The notes under the pieces were generated by a model. That model worked only from the letters and a program-made list of their open reading frames with translations, searched no databases and had not been told where the DNA came from. Of a stretch of 64,000 bases of DNA, positions 51,449-61,718 are shown piece by piece; position 1 is the first letter of the stretch, and each line of letters opens with the position of its first letter. Source of the DNA: Candidatus Latescibacterota bacterium (GTDB taxonomy: Bacteria; Latescibacterota; UBA2968). Where the stretch lies: positions 5,472,001 to 5,536,000 of the forward strand of contig OZ242311.1 of NCBI GenBank assembly GCA_965207885.1. Reading direction: 5' to 3'. Position numbers and translations under genes: made by a program.

Positions 51449-54400
51449 TTAGAATCTCGCTCTCAAACCAAAGTGAAACTCGCGAGGTGAATCCTGCTGG
51501 CGCAGATAATCACCCACATCGCCATAAGTGATATATTCGGGATTGTCCGGCAATGGCGTGTAAATCACACCCCATTCCACGTATTCAGCCCCCACTTCCA
51601 CCAGCTGATTATCCACGCGATAGCTGATGTGCGGGTCTTTCTGATTGAACAGATTAAAGGCTTCGAAGAAAGCCGTCACGCTCGCGCGCCTGTTAAATCT
51701 AAATGTCTTCTCAAAATTGATATCTGTGCGCGTGTGAATCGGGCCATTGTAGAACCCTTCGCCGCCTCTTCCCGGCGGTGAATAGAAAAACCTGCGCCCC
51801 GTGAACAGGCGATACACCGCATTCAGACGCAGATTTTCAAACGGATGGAAACCCACAAACCGCGGACCAAATTTTCCGGGCGACGAAAACATAAAGGTCA
51901 CCGTGCCGAAATTGGTTCGGTTCAAATTGGCGGGCCGAAACTCCTGAGACTGGTTGTTGCGCTGTAACCAGGTTGCGGCACCTTTGCCGTCCCAGTTGAT
52001 CAGGCTGTTTTCTTCATCCAGCGACCAGTTATTCACTCCTGTCCCCATTTCGAGTAGCTCAACCCGGTTGATCGCCTGGTTGCCAAAAGCCCGTGCCCGC
52101 TCAAAGCGCGTAATACCATCCATGGCTCGCGGGAACTCTTCGCCCGTATCGCTGCCATTGACGATACCGAGACCGGCAACACCATCGCCAACAAAATCGC
52201 CATCGCCATTGGAATCGTGTGTCCACTCATACCAGTAATGCGTCAAAAAGTTGCCATCGTTGTCGATATAGCCGGCATAATTGCCAAAGTTCGACGGATT
52301 CTTGGTCGCCAGTCTGTCTGGAGAAATATAGTGACTGCCGCGAACGCCCGAGTTGCCATTTTCGACCCACTGCACATTGTAGGCAATCGTGAACGCCGTC
52401 ATGTAGTTGAATTTCTTTTTGACCGACAACTCAAAGCCGCGCGTGTCCCGGTTATTCGTCTGACCCGATGCCCGCACGGTTCGGTTGTGCTGCAAACCCT
52501 GCTCCTGAATCCCGTAACCACCACCGCTGCGGCGGAAGACCTGTTGCTTGTAATACGCCGTCAAACCCGCCGTGTAATCCGTGATGAAGTTCCAGTCTGC
52601 ACCCACTTCAAAACTCGTGGTCACCAGCGGCTTGATCTTCGGCCAACCCCACTGCCCCGCATCCACAACATCCAGTGAGTTGTTTACCTCAGACGGGTCA
52701 ATCCGACCATTCTGGTTCAAATCCAGAAACTCCTCTTCGGTGCGGTAACTGTGAGAGAAGATCCACCAGAACTGCTCGATCTGTTCAAACTTGCCAAAGG
52801 TGAAGTGCATCGCACTGCTCTCCGTAATCGGATGGGATACACCCACGCGCGGCGAAAAGACCTGGATTGCTTGCGGGCGATAGGTCGGAATATTCTCGAC
52901 CTTTGTCGGATCGTGATATCTGTAAAACGGAATAAAATGTTCTGCCTGCGGCATCTCGGTATTCGGGCTCCAGCGCAAGCCGCGCAAGCCCACGTTCACC
53001 ACAATTCCTTCAAACTCCATTTTGTCCTGGAAATACACGGCATACTGGCGCGGCACTATGCCGACCTCGGGATTGTTAAACTGGCTGTAATACTGCTCAA
53101 CCAGGCCCCTGAAGTCGTTTTTGTTGCGAGAGAAACCCCAGTTGTCGTAGAACAAAAAGTCAATACCCGCTTTGATGAAGTGTCCCTTGGTCACCTGGCT
53201 CGAATAATCGACCTTGAGCTGATAGCGGTCGCGCTTTGAATTTGTCCAGTTCACCACCGGGCGGCCAACGTAATACCAGCCAGAGTCATTGCCAATGCCC
53301 GGCTCGACATAAGGCTGGTCTGTATTGAATGGCACTTCCGTATTCACTTCAGATGTGCGTGAATACGAGAACCGAATTTCGTAAAAGGTGCGCGCCGACA
53401 GCGTATGCGTCAAAGACGCGTAATTTAGAAAATCGCGCGTGCGCCGCTTGCCAGCCCCCGAGTATTCGGAAGGCACAAAGAGATTGCGACCGGAAGAGTT
53501 CATATTCTTGCGCGCACCCTGTTCAATGCGCCGAATAACGCCCGCATTGTACCGAGAACGCTGATTGAACAGAGAACCGTAGTTAAATTTGACGTTATTA
53601 CCCGGGCGATACGTCAGCTTGAAGTTCGTGCGGTTGTTGGGCAATGATACCGCCGTGGGTGCGGGAAAAGCCGACGGATTGCGATTTGCCGAAGACGTCA
53701 CCGTGAAGCCAATTCTTCTCATAATCGGACCGCCCAGCATTGCTTCGGCGCGGCCACCCCACACACCCGTGTAATCCTGACGCTCGTGAACCTTGCGCTG
53801 AACATCGTCGGCGGCAAACTGAGGATCCCTTATCTCTCCCGTCTGATTGTCGTGCCCCAATATCCCATCGGGACCGGGATACCACGCCTGCAAGTTTTCC
53901 CACTCGGGATTGCCCCACTGCATCCTGCCGCGATGCACGGGTGCTTCATACACATTTGCCCCCCAGTGCTTTTGTCCAGGCGGCGTAATGCGATATTCGC
54001 CCCTGCCCGTGTACCTCTGACCACCTTCTTTGGTCACCACGGAGACGACAGAACCCGCATTGCCATACTCCGCATTCATCCCACCAGTCAACACCGTCAG
54101 TTCCTGCACGGCACTCGTGTTCACGCCCTGAAAACGCGTAAATCCGGCGCGCGCATCGTTGTTCACCACGCGCACCCCATCGACCATATACGCCGTCTCC
54201 CAGAAGTTACCACCGCGAACACTCTCCGCCTCGTCGGGGGTCACGCCCGCCTGCAACTCCACAAAATCCGACATCTCGCGCACAATTGGCAAAGACTCGA
54301 TTTCTTCTGCCGTAATGACTGCTTTGCTCTCCGTTTTGTCGTGCTCCACTGGCGGACGCTCTGCAACGACGATCATCTCGTCCAATTCGAGCGTTTCCTC

Positions 54401-54724
54401 CCGCATCTGGAAGTTCACCGTCGTGGTATGGTCAACATTGACCACCACACCCTGGCGAATAGATTTTGTGTACCCCATCATCACCGTTTCAATATCATAG
54501 GTTCCCGGAGGAATATTGATGATGAAGTATTCGCCCTCCCCATCGGTGATCCCGGCGCGTTTCACGCCATCGATATCGATCACCACATTGGCACCGGGCA
54601 ACGGATCACCTGTAGCCTCAGTGACCCGCCCACTGATTTTACCCGTTGTGGCCGCTTCTGCCAATCCGGTACTGATCGCCAGCGCGACCAGCAGACCCAG
54701 ACAACACAATAATCGCTTACTCAT
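51449..54724 (-). CDS. TonB-dependent receptor (non-SusC type)
   Basis: TTGKISGRV N-domain, VRGG...YMVDG, TGGMNAEYG, YFQDKMEF, SPRVGVSHPI; terminal Phe; start ATG 54724. Confidence 0.9.
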   Translation of the reverse strand: MSKRLLCCLGLLVALAISTGLAEAATTGKISGRVTEATGDPLPGANVVIDIDGVKRAGITDGEGEYFIINIPPGTYDIETVMMGYTKSIRQGVVVNVDHTTTVNFQMREETLELDEMIVVAERPPVEHDKTESKAVITAEEIESLPIVREMSDFVELQAGVTPDEAESVRGGNFWETAYMVDGVRVVNNDARAGFTRFQGVNTSAVQELTVLTGGMNAEYGNAGSVVSVVTKEGGQRYTGRGEYRITPPGQKHWGANVYEAPVHRGRMQWGNPEWENLQAWYPGPDGILGHDNQTGEIRDPQFAADDVQRKVHERQDYTGVWGGRAEAMLGGPIMRRIGFTVTSSANRNPSAFPAPTAVSLPNNRTNFKLTYRPGNNVKFNYGSLFNQRSRYNAGVIRRIEQGARKNMNSSGRNLFVPSEYSGAGKRRTRDFLNYASLTHTLSARTFYEIRFSYSRTSEVNTEVPFNTDQPYVEPGIGNDSGWYYVGRPVVNWTNSKRDRYQLKVDYSSQVTKGHFIKAGIDFLFYDNWGFSRNKNDFRGLVEQYYSQFNNPEVGIVPRQYAVYFQDKMEFEGIVVNVGLRGLRWSPNTEMPQAEHFIPFYRYHDPTKVENIPTYRPQAIQVFSPRVGVSHPITESSAMHFTFGKFEQIEQFWWIFSHSYRTEEEFLDLNQNGRIDPSEVNNSLDVVDAGQWGWPKIKPLVTTSFEVGADWNFITDYTAGLTAYYKQQVFRRSGGGYGIQEQGLQHNRTVRASGQTNNRDTRGFELSVKKKFNYMTAFTIAYNVQWVENGNSGVRGSHYISPDRLATKNPSNFGNYAGYIDNDGNFLTHYWYEWTHDSNGDGDFVGDGVAGLGIVNGSDTGEEFPRAMDGITRFERARAFGNQAINRVELLEMGTGVNNWSLDEENSLINWDGKGAATWLQRNNQSQEFRPANLNRTNFGTVTFMFSSPGKFGPRFVGFHPFENLRLNAVYRLFTGRRFFYSPPGRGGEGFYNGPIHTRTDINFEKTFRFNRRASVTAFFEAFNLFNQKDPHISYRVDNQLVEVGAEYVEWGVIYTPLPDNPEYITYGDVGDYLRQQDSPREFHFGLRARF

Positions 54725-54803
54725 GTACGACCCTCCATAAAAAATGGTGAGTGGGATCATCCAGTTCTCCACGCCCTCCCGTGTGAAAAACTGAATCTCT
54801 GTT

Positions 54804-56095: not shown

Positions 56096-57091
56096 TTAAC
56101 GCATTTTCAAAATCCGGTTGATCTCTGCTCCACTCATTTTCCTTTCAAAACGCGGACCGTATTTGGCGACAACGCGCGAGGAAACATAGGTTGCGAGCCT
56201 CGCAGCCTGAGCCGCATCGTAACCCCGGGTCACAGCAAACAAATACGCCCCGGCAAACGAGTCGCCCGCGCCATTGGTATCCACAGCATTGACCTCAAAA
56301 CCCGGCGCATGCAACACATCGCCACCGTCGCAAACCCGGGCGCCATCAGCACCATACGTCAGAGCCAAACCGCCCACGCGTTGTCGCAACGCGTCAAAAG
56401 CCTCATCCGTTGTCTCGGCACCCGTGAATATCATGCCCTCATCCTCATTGCAAAACAGCATATCCACGCCCGCATCGACCAATGCCGTCATCCTATCCTT
56501 AAAAGCGGCCACAATAGACGGATCGCTCAGGGTGAGCGCGACCTTTGTACCGCGCTCCTGCGCTATCTTTTGCGCTGCCTGTGCCGCTTCAAAGCCATCG
56601 TCTGCCGCAATTAGATAACCCTCGATATAAATAAATTGGCTATCGGCAATCACACCACCCTCAACCTGCGCCACACCAAACGTACTCGTAATCCCCAAAA
56701 ATGTATTCATCGTGCGATCTGCATCCTCCGTAATCATCACCAGACACTTGCCCGTAACCCCTTCCCCGCGATGTGAAGGATTACACGCCACCCCCGCGGT
56801 ATTGAGATCGCGAAGATAAAACGCGCCATCTGCATCCTCAGCCACCTTACATCCGTAATAGCCCCTCCCACCACAATTGGCCAGCGCGATCATCGTATTG
56901 GCTGCCGAACCGCCCGACGAACGCGCCATCTCCTTCCCGCCCAAAGCATTGATCAACGCGCGCTGGCGATCTCCGTCAATCAGCGTCATCACACCCTTGT
57001 CAATCTCCATCGCCTCAAAAAATGACGGATCAACCCGAAACTGGATATCCACCAGCGCATTGCCCAGCCCATATACATCGTATTGACGCAT
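56096..57091 (-). CDS. PfkB-family (adenosine-like) kinase
   Basis: GNALVD, SGGSAANT, DRTM, NEDE and DTNGAGD motifs. Confidence 0.88.
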   Translation of the reverse strand: MRQYDVYGLGNALVDIQFRVDPSFFEAMEIDKGVMTLIDGDRQRALINALGGKEMARSSGGSAANTMIALANCGGRGYYGCKVAEDADGAFYLRDLNTAGVACNPSHRGEGVTGKCLVMITEDADRTMNTFLGITSTFGVAQVEGGVIADSQFIYIEGYLIAADDGFEAAQAAQKIAQERGTKVALTLSDPSIVAAFKDRMTALVDAGVDMLFCNEDEGMIFTGAETTDEAFDALRQRVGGLALTYGADGARVCDGGDVLHAPGFEVNAVDTNGAGDSFAGAYLFAVTRGYDAAQAARLATYVSSRVVAKYGPRFERKMSGAEINRILKMR

Positions 57092-57190: not shown

Positions 57191-58498
57191 CTACGGATGC
57201 AACCTGTTGGGGGTGCGGGACAAAAAAGTCGTCTCGCGCACAGAGGGCAACCCGAGCATAACCATAAGCAAACGCGACAGACCAAAACCAAATCCCCCGT
57301 GTGGCGGACATCCATACTTAAAAAAATCGAGATAAAACTGGATAACCTCTAAATCCAGCCCTTTCTCTCTCGCTTGTGCCCTCAGAAAATCGGGACGGTG
57401 CTCACGCTGCGCGCCCGTGGTAATTTCCACACCGCGATAGAGCAGATCAAAGCTCCTGGTCAACGCAGGCTGTTCTGGGTGAAGCATGTGGTAAAATGGC
57501 CGCACAGATACCGGGTAGTCTATCACAAAGACATAATCGCAACCCCGGGTTTTGCGGATATATTCACCGAGCAGACGCTCGCCCTTTGGATCGAGGTCGC
57601 CTTCTCGATCTGGCGCGTGACCCTGTTCGTACAACACCGCCAATGCCTCGGCCATCGCGATCCGCGGAAAAGGCAGTACTGGCACCATGAGTTCAACATC
57701 GTAATTTTCCGCAATAGCGTCACCGTGTCTTTCGCTTACTGTGTAAATGACATGTTGCAGCCATGCTTCTTCAAATGCCATCACATCCTCGTGACTATCA
57801 ATCCATGCGATCTCAACATCCACACTGGTAAACTCCGTCGTATGGCGTGAAGTAAATGAAGGATCAGCGCGAAAAACGGGCGCAATCTCAAACACGCGAT
57901 CAAAACCAGACGCCATCGCCATCTGTTTGTAAAACTGAGGCGATTGCGCCAGATAAGCTGTGGAATTGAAATACGGCAACGCAAACAACTCCGCTCCCGA
58001 TTCACTGGCTGTACCCATCAGTTTGGGAGAATGTATCTCGATAAAATGATTCTGCATCCAGTACTCGCGCATCGCCCATTCAACAGTAGTTTGTATCTCA
58101 AAAATCAACCGATTGCGCGGAACGCGAAGATCGAGATGCCGCCAATCCAGCCGATGGTCAATACCCGATGCACTTTCGGAAAACGGATCCAAAGGCAACG
58201 GCGCTTCAGCTACATTGACAACACTCAGTTCCTCAAGCTGAATTTCAACACCACCCAGACGAACACCTATATTTTCGACAACACGTCCGCTTATAGTTAC
58301 CGCCGATTCTCGCGTAAGAGCAGAAACCCGCTCTGCCAACGCCCCTGTCTTTTCATGCACGACCTGTACACTTCCCGTGCGATTTCTCAAAATGAGAAAC
58401 TGGACATACTTCTGGTCGCGCAGGGTATGCACCCATCCGTGAAGGGTAACGGTTTGGCCGATATATTTGGAAAGTTCAGATATTGCGATGTATTTCAT
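57191..58498 (-). CDS. aspS: Archaeal-type aspartate-tRNA ligase, probably non-discriminating (Asp/Asn)
   Basis: About 435 aa with no GAD insertion; GWVH, YLAQSPQFYKQ, RHTTEF, GAQREH and PPHGGFGFG motifs; start ATG 58498 with AAGGAG SD. Confidence 0.9.
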   Translation of the reverse strand: MKYIAISELSKYIGQTVTLHGWVHTLRDQKYVQFLILRNRTGSVQVVHEKTGALAERVSALTRESAVTISGRVVENIGVRLGGVEIQLEELSVVNVAEAPLPLDPFSESASGIDHRLDWRHLDLRVPRNRLIFEIQTTVEWAMREYWMQNHFIEIHSPKLMGTASESGAELFALPYFNSTAYLAQSPQFYKQMAMASGFDRVFEIAPVFRADPSFTSRHTTEFTSVDVEIAWIDSHEDVMAFEEAWLQHVIYTVSERHGDAIAENYDVELMVPVLPFPRIAMAEALAVLYEQGHAPDREGDLDPKGERLLGEYIRKTRGCDYVFVIDYPVSVRPFYHMLHPEQPALTRSFDLLYRGVEITTGAQREHRPDFLRAQAREKGLDLEVIQFYLDFFKYGCPPHGGFGFGLSRLLMVMLGLPSVRETTFLSRTPNRLHP

Positions 58499-58525
58499 GA
58501 TAGACTCCTTTTGGTTTTCAGGCAC

Positions 58526-58561
58526 AAAAAAAGCCCGTTGTCGTATTTTTCGACAACGGGC
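58526..58561 (-). terminator. Intrinsic terminator (attenuator) in the aspS leader
   Basis: GCCCGUUGUCG-AAAAAUA-CGACAACGGGC-U7; perfect 11-bp stem; U-tract ends 27 nt before the aspS ATG. Confidence 0.9.
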
Positions 58562-58591
58562 ACTTTACTCTACATGCTGGCACAAGACGAC

Positions 58592-58681
58592 CTATGCCGG
58601 TCCAGCCCGTCGCCGGATCGGATTATTATCGTCATTATTATTGCCAGAGAATTGAGCGATTTGGAAATAGTGTATATGCAT
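58592..58681 (-). CDS. Putative Asn/Asp-rich attenuator leader peptide, 29 aa
   Basis: MHIHYFQIAQFSGNNNDDNNPIRRRAGPA*; codons AAT AAT AAT GAC GAT AAT AAT at 58642..58622. Confidence 0.85.
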   Translation of the reverse strand: MHIHYFQIAQFSGNNNDDNNPIRRRAGPA

Positions 58682-58686
58682 GGTAT

Positions 58687-59424
58687 TTATCCAGTTTTTC
58701 TCCCGCCAAAAACAGCCAGTTCAAACAGCTTGAAATAACAATCTACATCTGAAAAACCAATAGCTCTGAGCCATTCGCATTGAGCTTCAACAGACGCGAG
58801 AATATTCGCCTGTTTGTCATCGCGATAATAATAAGCCCGCGCGATTTCATCGCGAGAAGCATTTGGATCTCGCCGCGTAACAGAATCGTAAAGCGCGTCA
58901 ATAAAGCGATCTGCAAAACGCGACTCAACCCACTTCGACGGAGAGCGAACATGCTCGACATTGACAAACACGCCATTGGGAGAAAGCAGATCAAAAATCT
59001 CGCCATAAACTTCGCGCTTGCGTTCATCGCTCTGATGATGAATTGAAAAACCCGATACAATCGCGTCATAAGGCGCGTCATCTGCAACCAGACTGAGCCA
59101 ATCGGACGTTGCATAATCGCCAATAACAAAACGGTGCTGTGAAGCCGTTTCCCCAAACCGCTTCTGCGCAGCCTCGATCATAGCCTCAGAAAAATCTACA
59201 AAAACGCCGCGTGCATCCGGGTGGTATTCAATAACCGCGGCGCCGAGTATGCCATCCCCACACCCCAGATCGAGCACAGTATTGACCCCGTGATCATCCG
59301 CATTAATCACCCGGCACATAACGGCAATCTGCTCATCGGACAGCGGAATTGCCTGCCGAATATTCTTGAGATATTTCTGCGCCAGATCTCGCGCCTGCCA
59401 GGCTGTATCTTTGCGTTTGCTCAT
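58687..59424 (-). CDS. Class I SAM-dependent methyltransferase (CmoA-like)
   Basis: VLDLGCGDG, VDFSEAM and YDAIVSGFSIHH motifs. Confidence 0.85.
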   Translation of the reverse strand: MSKRKDTAWQARDLAQKYLKNIRQAIPLSDEQIAVMCRVINADDHGVNTVLDLGCGDGILGAAVIEYHPDARGVFVDFSEAMIEAAQKRFGETASQHRFVIGDYATSDWLSLVADDAPYDAIVSGFSIHHQSDERKREVYGEIFDLLSPNGVFVNVEHVRSPSKWVESRFADRFIDALYDSVTRRDPNASRDEIARAYYYRDDKQANILASVEAQCEWLRAIGFSDVDCYFKLFELAVFGGRKTG

Positions 59425-59463
59425 AAAAATTCCATTTCTCAGCTTTTAGCGGTCAACGGTCAA

Positions 59464-59505
59464 CAAAACCTTCTGGATCGCGGCTCAACACCATGCCGCG
59501 ATGAC
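59464..59505 (-). repeat. REP-like palindrome, second copy
   Basis: Minus strand reads GTCATCGCGGCATGGTGTTGAGCCGCGATCCAG; flanked by heptamer-like repeats. Confidence 0.85.
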
Positions 59506-59551: not shown

Positions 59552-61132
59552 TCAATACCCCACTGCCAGACCATCCTTGCGGGGATCGGAAGCCGCGCAA
59601 TAACCGTCGTCCAATTTATAAATGAGTTGACCTCCGCCATATCCAATAGCTGGTGGAATTTGGATATCGTGCCCGCGGGCGCGAAGATCGTCCAGCACAC
59701 CGGCATCCACACCTGGCTCAATACCCACGCTCAAACCGCCAAAAACCTGCCACCGGGGCGCATCACACGCAGCCTGTGGATTTTGACCATAAGCAAAAAT
59801 CCGAATCATCATCTGCGCGTGACCTTGCGGCTGCATGTGCCCACCCATAACGCCGAAAGACATCACCGGTTGGCCCTCTCGGGTCGCAAACGCTGGAATA
59901 ATCGTATGATACGGTCGCTTGCCCCCATCTACGCGATTGGGATGGTCCTCCGTCAAAACAAAACCCGCACCCCGGTTCTGCATACTAATACCCGTATCCG
60001 GAATCACAACACCAGATCCAAAACCCATATAATTGGACTGAATAAACGAAACCATCATCCCATCTGCATCTGCCGCCGTAAGATAAACCGTATCCCCACG
60101 CGGCATGCCAAAAGTGGGCATCCCTGCCCTTTTCAGATCAATCGACCTCGCGCGTTGCGCCAGATAATCCGGATCGAGCAATTGCGCGAACTCAATATCC
60201 CGCGTACCCGGATCAGACACGTACCTGTGCGTATCCGCATACGCCAACTTCATCGCCTCAATCTGAAGATGTAAACTATCCGCCGAATCAACAGCATACC
60301 CGGACAAATCCCAATTCTCCAGTATCCCCAGCGCAATCAGTGCCGCAATACCCTGACCATTCGGCGGAATTTCGTGCAGCGTATAACCCCCAAAATCCAT
60401 CGTCATTGTATCCACCCAATCTGTCCGATGCTCCGCCAGGTCTTCTTCTGTCATCGCACCGCCAGTGCGTTTTGCATGCGCAGCGATCTTCTCTGCCAAA
60501 TCTCCCGAATAGAACGCCTCTCCTCTTGTCTCCGCAATCCGTTCAAGCGTGCGCGCCTGCGCGCCACACACAAATTTCTCTCCAATTTTCGGCGCGCGTC
60601 CCCCGGGTGCAAAAGTCGCCATCCAATCGGGCATATCGCCGTAATTATACACAGCCTGTGCCCAGCTATGCCCGGTAATAGGCGAAACTACAAAACCATC
60701 GCGGGCATAGTGAATCGCGGGTTCAAACAACGCCTCAAACGGCAACACGCCAAACCGCTCTGAAACCTCGGCCCATGCCGAAACACAGCCAGGCACAGTC
60801 ACGGCATCCCAACCGCGCTGAGGCATCAGAGTGTGCGCTGCAAATAAATCGGGCGACCACGCTTTTGGGGAACGCCCCGATGCATTGAGACCGTGTATTT
60901 GCTCGCCATCCCACAAAATGCAAAACGCATCGCTACCTATACCATTCATATTGGGTTCAACAACCGTAAGCGCCATGGCTGTTGCCAGAGCTGCATCTGC
61001 GGCATTGCCACCTTTGAGCAACATCTGCAACCCCGCCTGAGCGGCCAGAGGTTGAGAAGTCGCAACCACATTGCGCGCCATAACCGGCATGCGTTGTGAA
61101 GAATACGGAAAAGACCAGGATAATTCGGGCAT
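59552..61132 (-). CDS. ggt: Gamma-glutamyltransferase family (cytoplasmic, YwrD-like)
   Basis: TSQPLA, GGNAADA, catalytic Thr in DTVY, PYHTIIP, GVMGG and SDPRKDG motifs. Confidence 0.9.
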   Translation of the reverse strand: MPELSWSFPYSSQRMPVMARNVVATSQPLAAQAGLQMLLKGGNAADAALATAMALTVVEPNMNGIGSDAFCILWDGEQIHGLNASGRSPKAWSPDLFAAHTLMPQRGWDAVTVPGCVSAWAEVSERFGVLPFEALFEPAIHYARDGFVVSPITGHSWAQAVYNYGDMPDWMATFAPGGRAPKIGEKFVCGAQARTLERIAETRGEAFYSGDLAEKIAAHAKRTGGAMTEEDLAEHRTDWVDTMTMDFGGYTLHEIPPNGQGIAALIALGILENWDLSGYAVDSADSLHLQIEAMKLAYADTHRYVSDPGTRDIEFAQLLDPDYLAQRARSIDLKRAGMPTFGMPRGDTVYLTAADADGMMVSFIQSNYMGFGSGVVIPDTGISMQNRGAGFVLTEDHPNRVDGGKRPYHTIIPAFATREGQPVMSFGVMGGHMQPQGHAQMMIRIFAYGQNPQAACDAPRWQVFGGLSVGIEPGVDAGVLDDLRARGHDIQIPPAIGYGGGQLIYKLDDGYCAASDPRKDGLAVGY

Positions 61133-61653: not shown

Positions 61654-61686
61654 AAAAAAACCCGCCGAAGATGCTTCGGCGGGTTC
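61654..61686 (-). terminator. Intrinsic terminator upstream of the VOC gene (putative attenuator)
   Basis: GAACCCGCCGAAG-CAU-CUUCGGCGGGUUUUUUU. Confidence 0.85.
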
Positions 61687-61718
61687 GTTTTTACAAGACT
61701 CATTTGCATTTAAGTCTA

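Follow-up and report, generated by a model that had tools for sequence, protein, structure and literature searches.

Leader-peptide attenuation is a textbook mechanism, described for few amino acids and chiefly in Proteobacteria and Actinobacteria, and in the case of E. coli pheST it acts on aminoacyl-tRNA synthetase genes. A 2012 study by Saad et al. reportedly deals, by its title, with T-box control of the genes for tRNA-dependent asparagine synthesis in Clostridium acetobutylicum. Passages of PMC2965389 describe a His leader upstream of hisS paralogs in bacilli and state that by 2010 leader-peptide attenuators were known only from Proteobacteria and Actinobacteria. For Deinococcus radiodurans and Thermus thermophilus, passages of PMC4206432 present an extra archaeal-type aspartyl-tRNA synthetase (AspRS), acting together with GatCAB, as the route by which asparagine is made on tRNA. 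Here we describe an element preceding the gene of such an extra enzyme, called aspS2 below, in a window of 64,000 nt (the whole stretch of DNA analyzed, to which all coordinates refer) from the 6.23-Mb genome of a Candidatus Latescibacterota bacterium (G000; other G and L numbers denote compared genomes and loci). We read it, with a probability of roughly 0.8 and on the strength of sequence comparison, as a ribosome-mediated leader-peptide transcription attenuator of an accessory non-discriminating AspRS gene. The parts of the element, their covariation, selection on the encoded peptide and the matching of codons to downstream genes in sister leaders are all seen in the compared sequences. Every part of the switch is located on the minus strand:

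58592..58681, minus strand: leader upstream open reading frame (uORF) of 29 codons plus TAG, MHIHYFQIAQFSGNNNDDNNPIRRRAGPA and stop (from its translation and the conserved reading frame in relatives)
58622..58642, minus strand: regulatory codon run AAT AAT AAT GAC GAT AAT AAT, i.e. N N N D D N N (from translation)
58598..58621, minus strand: conserved peptide block P-I-R-R-R-A-G-P (from codon-position variation in relatives)
58598..58609, minus strand: RAGP, an arrest core of the SecM/YwcI type (from motif comparison with the literature)
58605..58615, minus strand: antiterminator 5' strand CGGCGACGGGC, the R-R-R-A codons (from pairing and covariation)
58586..58633, minus strand: predicted protector (1:2) hairpin (from minimum free energy, MFE, folds)
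58526..58561, minus strand: intrinsic terminator with 5' arm 58561..58551, loop 58550..58544, 3' arm 58543..58533 and U-tract 58532..58526 (from the stem and U7)
57191..58510, minus strand: aspS2 including its Shine-Dalgarno (SD) sequence AAGGAG (58510..58505) and ATG at 58498, encoding a 435-aa protein (from family models)
58687..59424, minus strand: upstream gene of an S-adenosylmethionine (SAM)-dependent methyltransferase, given for context only and outside the switch (from family searches)

In the proposed mechanism, transcription would enter the leader and a ribosome would translate the 29-codon uORF. With Asn-tRNA(Asn) and, to a lesser degree, Asp-tRNA(Asp) plentiful, the ribosome would reach the uORF end and occupy the R-R-R-A codons, which constitute the antiterminator strand; with that strand covered, the 11-bp terminator would form and transcription would stop 28 nt before the aspS2 start. 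With poor charging, the ribosome would stall on N-N-N-D-D-N-N and free the antiterminator strand for the terminator 5' arm, and RNA polymerase would then read into aspS2; more AspRS2 would give more Asp-tRNA(Asn) and, via GatCAB, more Asn-tRNA(Asn). An untranslated leader in the lineages with a protector would keep its antiterminator strand sequestered, there being no ribosome on the Asn/Asp (N/D) codons. The direction of the switch, from stall to read-through, is the step that we infer.

Conservation and RNA helices of the aspS2 leader

The 29-codon uORF at 58681..58592 with seven consecutive N/D codons, as well as the perfect 11-bp terminator with U7 (58561..58526) ahead of the aspS SD sequence, are present just as an earlier note on this DNA (the original prediction) had described them. 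The terminator stem comprises 11 perfect pairs, 8 of them G-C, with a loop of 7 followed by T7, and the hairpin alone folds at -19.7 kcal/mol. The antiterminator, in which CGGCGACGGGC pairs with the terminator 5' arm over 11 nt (9 Watson-Crick pairs and 2 G-U), reaches -19.6 kcal/mol as a duplex. For the whole leader of G000 the MFE is -63.1 kcal/mol (z = -4.9), a value equaled by none of 200 shuffles.

Alignment of the upstream regions of relatives bears out the original prediction in its uORF, its N/D richness and its helices, which covary. Within the genus of G000, uORF, terminator and antiterminator pairing accompany all of the aspS2 copies (14/14), and aspS2 copies of other genera, with 62-69% identity at the protein level, have them too. 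Orthologous uORFs, 29-46 aa long, come from 25 aligned loci and, in addition, from G086, G088 and a metagenome locus (L195). In a survey of the best 80 aspS2 homologues in 185,579 species genomes (the genome counts given here cover related, non-independent genomes) the leader was found at 11/11 Latescibacterota loci and at 0/69 loci of other taxa, e.g. Chloroflexota and Solirubrobacterales. A leader candidate at L067, which had passed a loose filter, proved to be merely the end of a longer ORF. In the phylum a RAGP leader is present in 24 of the 29 genomes with aspS2. Among the others, G022 and G089, which belong to one genus, show a motif decayed to PIRRWRPP and PIRRRRHP and have in-frame stops in their aspS2 matches; the leader of G079 is distal, lacks RAGP and stands in front of an ATP-binding cassette (ABC) transporter operon whose last gene is aspS2; and in G064 and G067, from other classes, no leader was found within 600 nt of aspS2. 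The aspS2 matches of four loci (L019 in G022, L117 in G089, L020 in G023 and L021 in G040) contain in-frame stops or fall into pieces, and G023 and G040 retain RAGP despite the broken matches.

A DNA pattern for PI(R/Q)RRAGP has 32 matches in the 168 phylum genomes and 2 for the reversed control. Of the 31 that were examined, 24 are located at aspS2, six are apparent chance matches inside other frames and one is an orphan (L134, G012:C19:2408-5430), in which leader and terminator persist with a core identical to that of the G000 leader at a site that no longer has aspS2; the orphan leader is followed by a terminator-like hairpin of another kind. The covariance model R1, described below, adds RAGP leaders in G088, where the next ORF starts like AspRS2, and in G086, where no aspS2 was seen on the short contig. 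The leader is often duplicated in tandem: at L016, L017, L116, L019 and L117 an N/D-rich first leader with its own antiterminator and terminator precedes the RAGP leader, and these first copies lack RAGP (e.g. ..NPDSNPNNYGIQWRDLVLP, ..SNPNPNRDNSGTQRRDRL and ..NSDNDDEES, each followed by a stop). In some genus members (L004, L007, L012 and L134) an insertion of ~110 nt separates the methyltransferase gene from the uORF; it contains short ACGAATAGACG-like units repeated in tandem and a hairpin that is rich in G-C and has no U-tract.

These data bear on the simplest alternative, namely that the hairpin is the terminator of the methyltransferase gene and the uORF a chance frame. Such a coincidence would fit the position of the uORF ATG in G000, 5 nt past the methyltransferase stop, and the persistence of leader and terminator in G012 without aspS2. 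It is contradicted by the comparative data: the leader stays with aspS2 where the upstream sequence differs (G015, G002 and the genomes of families f2 and f3), it occurs in tandem, and it is absent from the 69 homologous genes of other phyla. In addition, the six-frame translation of the G000 genome (12.46 million codons) contains five runs of at least 7 N/D, of which four are poly-D and the leader run alone contains Asn. Among 47 metagenome occurrences of a pattern coding for NPI(R/Q/H)RRAGP, 46 have no N/D-rich short-tailed leader context, and the only real leader (L195) precedes aspS2, at 78% identity. We consider coincidence exceedingly improbable.

The helices were assessed in alignment A1, which comprises 25 leaders from three families. 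The antiterminator is paired in 89.7% of A1 cells, compared with 28-54% when its partner is slid by 1-3 columns, and shows double changes at 3 pairs, including GC<->AU at columns 53/123 and AU<->GC at columns 57/119, each in 5 sequences; the predicted 11-nt pairing is thereby supported across the three families. The terminator is paired in 97.5% of cells, with compensatory double changes at 5 pairs; slid controls for both helices range over 28-56%. For antiterminator and terminator alike the observed covariation score was reached by none of 500 shuffles. Because the A1 sequences are related, such shuffle counts are not probabilities, and as far as sequence comparison goes it is the slid controls and the compensatory changes that carry the covariation argument.

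Ribosome positions were modeled by footprint folds in 12 lineages, each transcript being given 45 nt of 5' context and cut before the terminator 3' arm. A ribosome whose A site holds the first or the fourth N/D codon leaves a 10-12-bp antiterminator in the predicted MFE structure of 12/12 lineages, in keeping with the earlier claim that a stall on Asn/Asp codons frees the antiterminator strand; once the A site has moved to the last Asn codon, the predicted helix is down to 6-7 bp. The protector hairpin, which the original prediction placed around the same strand, is part of the MFE fold of the G000 leader, with a predicted basal stem of GACGAU with GUCGUC and an apical stem of CCGAUCCGG with CUGGACCGG, and in the model of G000 without a ribosome the protector state is favored at -38.4 vs -34.3 kcal/mol for the forced antiterminator. 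This part of the prediction does not extend to most relatives: the protector buries the antiterminator strand in only 4/12 lineages (G000, G001, G023 and G077), and for G023 a longer 5' context altered the outcome (partial run). RNAalifold, applied to the 25 leaders, recovered nothing beyond the terminator and an invariant mini-stem of 3 bp, with no conserved protector among its predictions. Since the protector is not conserved, the classic four-segment model would be valid at best in some lineages.

The leader peptide and its RAGP motif

N/D richness is kept in all lineages, in which AAT/AAC and GAT/GAC change synonymously. The ~12 codons before P-I contain 3-8 Asn and 1-3 Asp in every lineage, in variants such as NNNDDNN, NPDHNNDEHN, NLNPNPNDDNN and NPNSNFDNC. 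This dominance of Asn codons agrees with Asp-tRNA(Asn) being the special product of the enzyme. In g6/g8 leaders (L015, L021 and L111-L113) many N/D positions are occupied by His (up to 4) and one by Tyr, so that all are NAY codons; NAY codons are those read by the queuosine-modified tRNA set.

An arrest peptide of the TnaC/SpeFL kind would give these residues another role, with free Asn or Asp in the exit tunnel stalling the ribosome and thereby deciding between terminator and antiterminator. It would agree with a C-terminal block conserved as peptide and with a conserved leader length (29 aa, or 43-46 aa), and RAGP is a known arrest core, cofactor-dependent arrest peptides being described in passages of PMC12992588. 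The N/D segment, however, keeps its composition and not its sequence, which fits codon sensing better than a binding pocket; N/D richness is also kept in the first copies of tandem leaders and in the leaders of family f4 (below), all without RAGP, and sister leaders obey the same codon-gene rule for Thr, Val and Val/Leu. Ligand sensing thus appears very unlikely to us as compared with codon sensing by an attenuator.

From the N/D run through RAGP there is no indel across the three families, whereas the flanks are rich in them. Over P-I-R-R-R-A-G-P the variable columns number 1, 2 and 8 at codon positions 1, 2 and 3, respectively, and the block makes use of each of the four Ala and the four Gly codons; this free variation of third positions points to selection on the peptide. 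The Ala third position and the Gly and Pro codons are located outside the antiterminator helix, and RNAalifold shows no conserved pairing there beyond the 3-bp mini-stem. As the thrS sister leaders read the same antiterminator in another frame, the Arg codons are probably held by the RNA and Ala-Gly-Pro by the peptide. The peptide-level conservation of PI(R/Q)RRAGP had been missed by the original prediction.

Two further explanations have to be measured against this pattern. In one, a protein, tRNA or small molecule acts in trans on the antiterminator and terminator, and translation of the uORF is irrelevant. The two helices do covary on their own, and the different frame in thrS leaders indicates that the CGN-rich strand is under constraint at the RNA level; against this, variation confined to third positions over eight codons and the lack of indels indicate that ribosomes do read this frame, the codons enriched in a leader correspond to its downstream gene for several specificities, and no Rfam family matches, T-box included. 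We hold such an RNA switch to be improbable in the extreme range, comparable to ligand sensing. In the other, the uORF product is a small protein that acts in trans, e.g. by binding AspRS2 or GatCAB, and its C-terminal conservation reflects that role. Conservation at the peptide level would be expected, and a trans-acting leader peptide, peTrpL, is reported in the literature; the conserved portion amounts, however, to ~8 C-terminal residues plus a compositional N/D stretch, the N-terminal part differs between families, and the conserved codons lie on the antiterminator strand or directly next to it, all of which leaves this explanation scarcely any probability.

RAGP has its own literature. 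According to passages of PMC10987492 and PMC12992588, it is the C-terminal core of the SecM arrest sequence; in B. subtilis YwcI the RAGP core stalls the ribosome with Gly in the P site, and exchange of Pro for Ala abolishes arrest; RAGP also supports arrest in the ApdP and ApcA contexts and is depleted from bacterial proteomes. RAGP-dependent arrest was shown there in E. coli or B. subtilis cell-free systems. Of the 24 ways to order R, A, G and P, RAGP occurs least often in G000 ORFs of at least 200 aa (6 occurrences vs a median of 28). In 25 of the 26 listed leaders RAGP lies 1-4 codons ahead of the stop; the exception is G026, whose frame has no nearby stop and continues for 57 codons, through the terminator, so that translation would carry on across it if RAGP did not halt the ribosome. 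By analogy with these systems, RAGP may serve to park the ribosome on the antiterminator strand until the terminator has been made, a suggestion to which we attach somewhat less than even weight. The 29-aa leader of G000 has no long hydrophobic stretch, no export or membrane segment and no sec or yidC gene downstream.

The AspRS2 enzyme and its genomic setting

The original prediction treated the gene downstream of the leader as that of a non-discriminating AspRS, and two NCBIfam equivalog models agree above their cut-offs: NF003483 at 493.4 bits (cut-off 353) and TIGR00458 at 399.2 bits (cut-off 368.4). Models of asparaginyl-tRNA synthetase (AsnRS) and bacterial AspRS remain below their cut-offs, the bacterial aspS models matching in two split stretches. 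Pfam recognizes tRNA-synt_2 and the OB anticodon domain, and the scores of AspRS2 above the equivalog cut-offs and its length of 435 aa agree with the archaeal type, which has ~430 aa and lacks the bacterial insertion domain. Family membership suggests that AspRS2 is an accessory archaeal-type non-discriminating aspartate--tRNA(Asn) ligase.

G000 also encodes AsnRS (490 bits), GatB, a bacterial-type AspRS (a 594-aa frame downstream of hisS) and a single tRNA-Asn(GUU) with U1-A72. AsnA was found in 0/21 genomes of the genus, and AsnB above cut-off in 4/21, G000 not among them; aspS2 is present in 14/21 genus genomes and 29/168 phylum genomes. GatB, the U1-A72 tRNA-Asn and no AsnA or AsnB above cut-off form a context consistent with Asp charging of tRNA-Asn, and because neither asparagine synthetase scores above cut-off, AspRS2 with GatCAB is probably the sole asparagine route in G000. 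No N/D leader was found upstream of G000 asnS, bacterial aspS or gatB. A peptide regex revealed no second RAGP leader in the G000 genome, and a scan for N/D-rich short ORFs preceding a T-run no second N/D leader.

The earlier note had set aspS in a Firmicutes context, in which T-box control is usual, and had seen no T-box. The latter holds: a permissive Rfam search of 57500..59500 gave no T-box match even at E up to 10, nothing, T-box included, reaches the gathering score in the whole window, and no family matched at nine related loci. The former does not, as the organism belongs to Latescibacterota and is not a Firmicute, and the expectation of a T-box does not apply.

Around the switch, a pfkB-family sugar kinase gene (56096..57091, minus strand) follows ~100 nt downstream of aspS2 and is possibly co-transcribed with it. 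A gamma-glutamyltransferase-like gene (59552..61132, minus strand) scores 340 bits, just below the cut-off of 358, and the protein encoded at 51449..54772 (minus strand) gives a weak partial match to the SusC/RagA TonB-linked family (52 bits vs a cut-off of 368). Elsewhere in G000, three paralogous small ORFs near 1388824 (plus strand), 5336059 (minus strand) and 1888705 (minus strand) share MTTRRKLTL.NG.ID..G and an acidic tail PPLPFPDDDDWDDFEQ, each then followed by a T-run. A pair of poly-Asp runs (D8 and D7, spaced by 339 nt) is present in two copies on the plus strand (126398/126737 and 6226018/6226357), ~6.1 Mb apart, pointing to gene duplication or to a repeat close to the end of the contig.

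A wider family of probable attenuators and its relation to known systems

A covariance model, R1, was built for the segment from the P codon to the terminator, using 14 RAGP leaders and 3 first copies. At E up to 0.01 it has matches in 113 of the 132 class genomes, and many of the weak ones are partial and terminator-like. On G000 it gives one strong match, the aspS2 leader, and 13 weak partial ones; within the window, a partial match at 61655..61698 (minus strand; 26.5 bits, model positions 45-93) is a terminator-like hairpin without a leader part. We inspected 26 of the 383 matches in the 132 genomes and found a common CGACGGCGGG-type antiterminator plus terminator combined with differing leaders and genes. 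The shared module can be written as CGACGGCGGG ... ACCCGCCGUCGA-loop-UCGACGGCGGGUUUUUU, with a CGN-rich antiterminator. Sister loci L226-L247 (in G036, G039, G077-G081, G092-G095, G106, G127, G149-G151 and G164-G166) place such attenuators before thrS, valS, ilvB, asd, a metG-like gene, ABC-transporter operons and others, and none of them matches Rfam. Where the downstream gene was named by an NCBIfam model, it is set out here with its leader:

thrS, 647 bits: leader ...ETTTPGTTTPVTGT..., with 9-10 Thr in the last 30 residues
valS, 1003 bits: leader with 7 Val in the last 30 residues
acetolactate synthase large subunit (ilvB), 739 bits: leader rich in Val/Leu/Gly
aspartate-semialdehyde dehydrogenase (asd), 445 bits: leader rich in Lys/Thr
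bacterial-type AspRS (G106), 802 bits: leader MTSRHKHAAHAFSNSDSNNNPAIRARWRWP and stop

In G127 an Ile-rich leader, and in G095 one rich in Lys/Asn, stand before genes that were named by eye alone.

In the 76 genomes of family f4, ~34 places encode such a second AspRS of bacterial type, a paralog that shares 61-100% identity with the copy of G106 and ~44% with the housekeeping one. N-rich leaders of three recurrent types precede it at 27/30 f4 loci by inspection (29/30 by a looser scripted filter); these leaders (L259-L288; e.g. L263, also L244) read MTFRHKHTARAFSHNNDDNNPAIRARWRWP, MMTRQNDRTQNNNNPLAPLRVF or ..VDNNGDNNNQGNNNRTSAGGTATAG, each followed by a stop, and G106 has two N-rich leader types in tandem. 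The combination of an Asn/Asp leader with an accessory AspRS thus recurs with a different type of enzyme, which makes it an independent replicate of the idea put forward in the original prediction. As the sequences have it, the aspS2 leader is one member of a class-wide attenuator family, overlooked in the original prediction, which has a common antiterminator/terminator module and different regulatory codons. This matching of codons to genes, the covariation and the 12/12 footprint folds all support the attenuator of trp/his/pheST style that was first proposed for the locus.

Several points weigh against the proposed attenuator. The only sigma-70-like match in the region is on the opposite strand. 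The uORF of G000 has a weak SD-like GGA only, and none was recognized in several genus members; f2 and other lineages outside the genus of G000 have clear GGAG-type SD sequences before the uORF. All folds are thermodynamic predictions, and in the model without a ribosome the antiterminator forms by default in 8/12 lineages. Sister leaders, first copies of tandem pairs and the AspRS leaders of f4 have no RAGP and end e.g. in DGA, RWP or LRVF before the stop, several of them in Pro-stop; this counts against a role of RAGP, since an attenuator of this family does not require it. A ribosome at the stop codon, between both strands, may already block the helix sterically, in which case arrest is not demanded by the geometry; for the same reason we dropped as decisive the claim that only a RAGP-arrested ribosome masks the antiterminator in 46-aa leaders, since a ribosome at the stop codon should hinder pairing too. 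Finally, asnB is missing from 13/14 aspS2-positive genus genomes and also from 4/7 aspS2-negative ones, and in these related, not independent genomes the pattern is only suggestive.

With these points in mind, RAGP could be pictured as a SecM-type arrest motif recruited as the OFF-state clamp of a two-state attenuator with the antiterminator as its default: once past the hungry Asn/Asp codons, the ribosome would be parked with Gly in the P site, right on the antiterminator strand, and the terminator would form in this state only. Such attenuators would make up a modular family that extends across the phylum. We advance this by analogy and tentatively, with the balance tilted against it. If it were true, RAGP arrest would, in lineages without a protector, be what makes termination possible at all, and the peptide would be the first of the arrest type to act by letting an intrinsic terminator form in the leader of an aminoacyl-tRNA synthetase gene; the modular family would in turn fill in this phylum the role that T-boxes have in Firmicutes.

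Literature searches found no Asn/Asp leader on aspS, as the original prediction had supposed of characterized cases, within a coverage from which the supplementary lists of RAPP-like uORFs of PMC10987492 and PMC12992588, which could include one, were absent. They likewise returned no terminator enforced by an arrest peptide and no such attenuator for Latescibacterota, and the terms aspS, asnS, asparagine and aspartate are absent from PMC4833913, PMC1262725 and the passages of PMC2965389. The aspS2 leader would thus add an Asn/Asp-specific attenuator to the known set, one controlling the enzyme that starts tRNA-dependent asparagine synthesis and letting the cell sense Asn-tRNA(Asn), the product of the pathway itself. 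For Latescibacterota it would reveal a single modular design, absent from Rfam, that serves aspS2, a second bacterial aspS, thrS, valS, ilvB and asd. The conserved RAGP offers a testable bridge between hungry-codon attenuation and intrinsic arrest peptides, in an element that is small (~160 nt) and self-contained.

Among known systems, the AspRS2 route of Deinococcus and Thermus resembles that of G000 in its combination of AsnRS, bacterial AspRS, archaeal-type AspRS, GatCAB and U1-A72 tRNA-Asn without asparagine synthetase; it differs in that the passages of PMC4206432 on it describe no leader-peptide control of the extra AspRS. The T-box of Clostridium acetobutylicum is alike, by the title of the study, in placing tRNA-dependent amidation under a sensor of tRNA charging. 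In the T-box that sensor is an RNA which binds uncharged tRNA directly, whereas in the aspS2 leader it would be a ribosome on Asn/Asp codons.

Arrest peptides form the next group, which includes SecM, YwcI and the RAPP-like peptides ApdA, ApdP and ApcA (passages of PMC10987492, PMC12992588 and PMC10951299). Like these, the leader is a small upstream ORF with R-A-G-P close to its C-terminal end and with conservation of the motif at the peptide level; as in SecM, an Ile comes ahead of the motif (...GIRAGP in SecM, ...PIRRRAGP in the leader). Unlike this group, it has no signal or membrane segment, the downstream gene is neither sec nor yidC, and a chain of 29 aa would lie wholly within the tunnel, which makes release by pulling unlikely. 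Its proposed output is an intrinsic terminator and not the exposure of an SD sequence, and arrest is here a proposal from the motif.

The closest systems are the trp, his, thr, leu, ilv, pheA and pheST attenuators, with which the aspS2 leader has in common a short uORF in which product-cognate codons form a run, an intrinsic terminator whose 5' arm is overlapped by an antiterminator, a position of the ribosome that would select the helix and, as a prediction for the genus of G000, the 1:2 protector hairpin. It differs from them in matching no Rfam family and lacking the protector in most lineages, in its conserved RAGP and common tandem copies, and above all in its specificity for Asn together with Asp, its target, an accessory non-discriminating AspRS, and its occurrence in an uncultured phylum.

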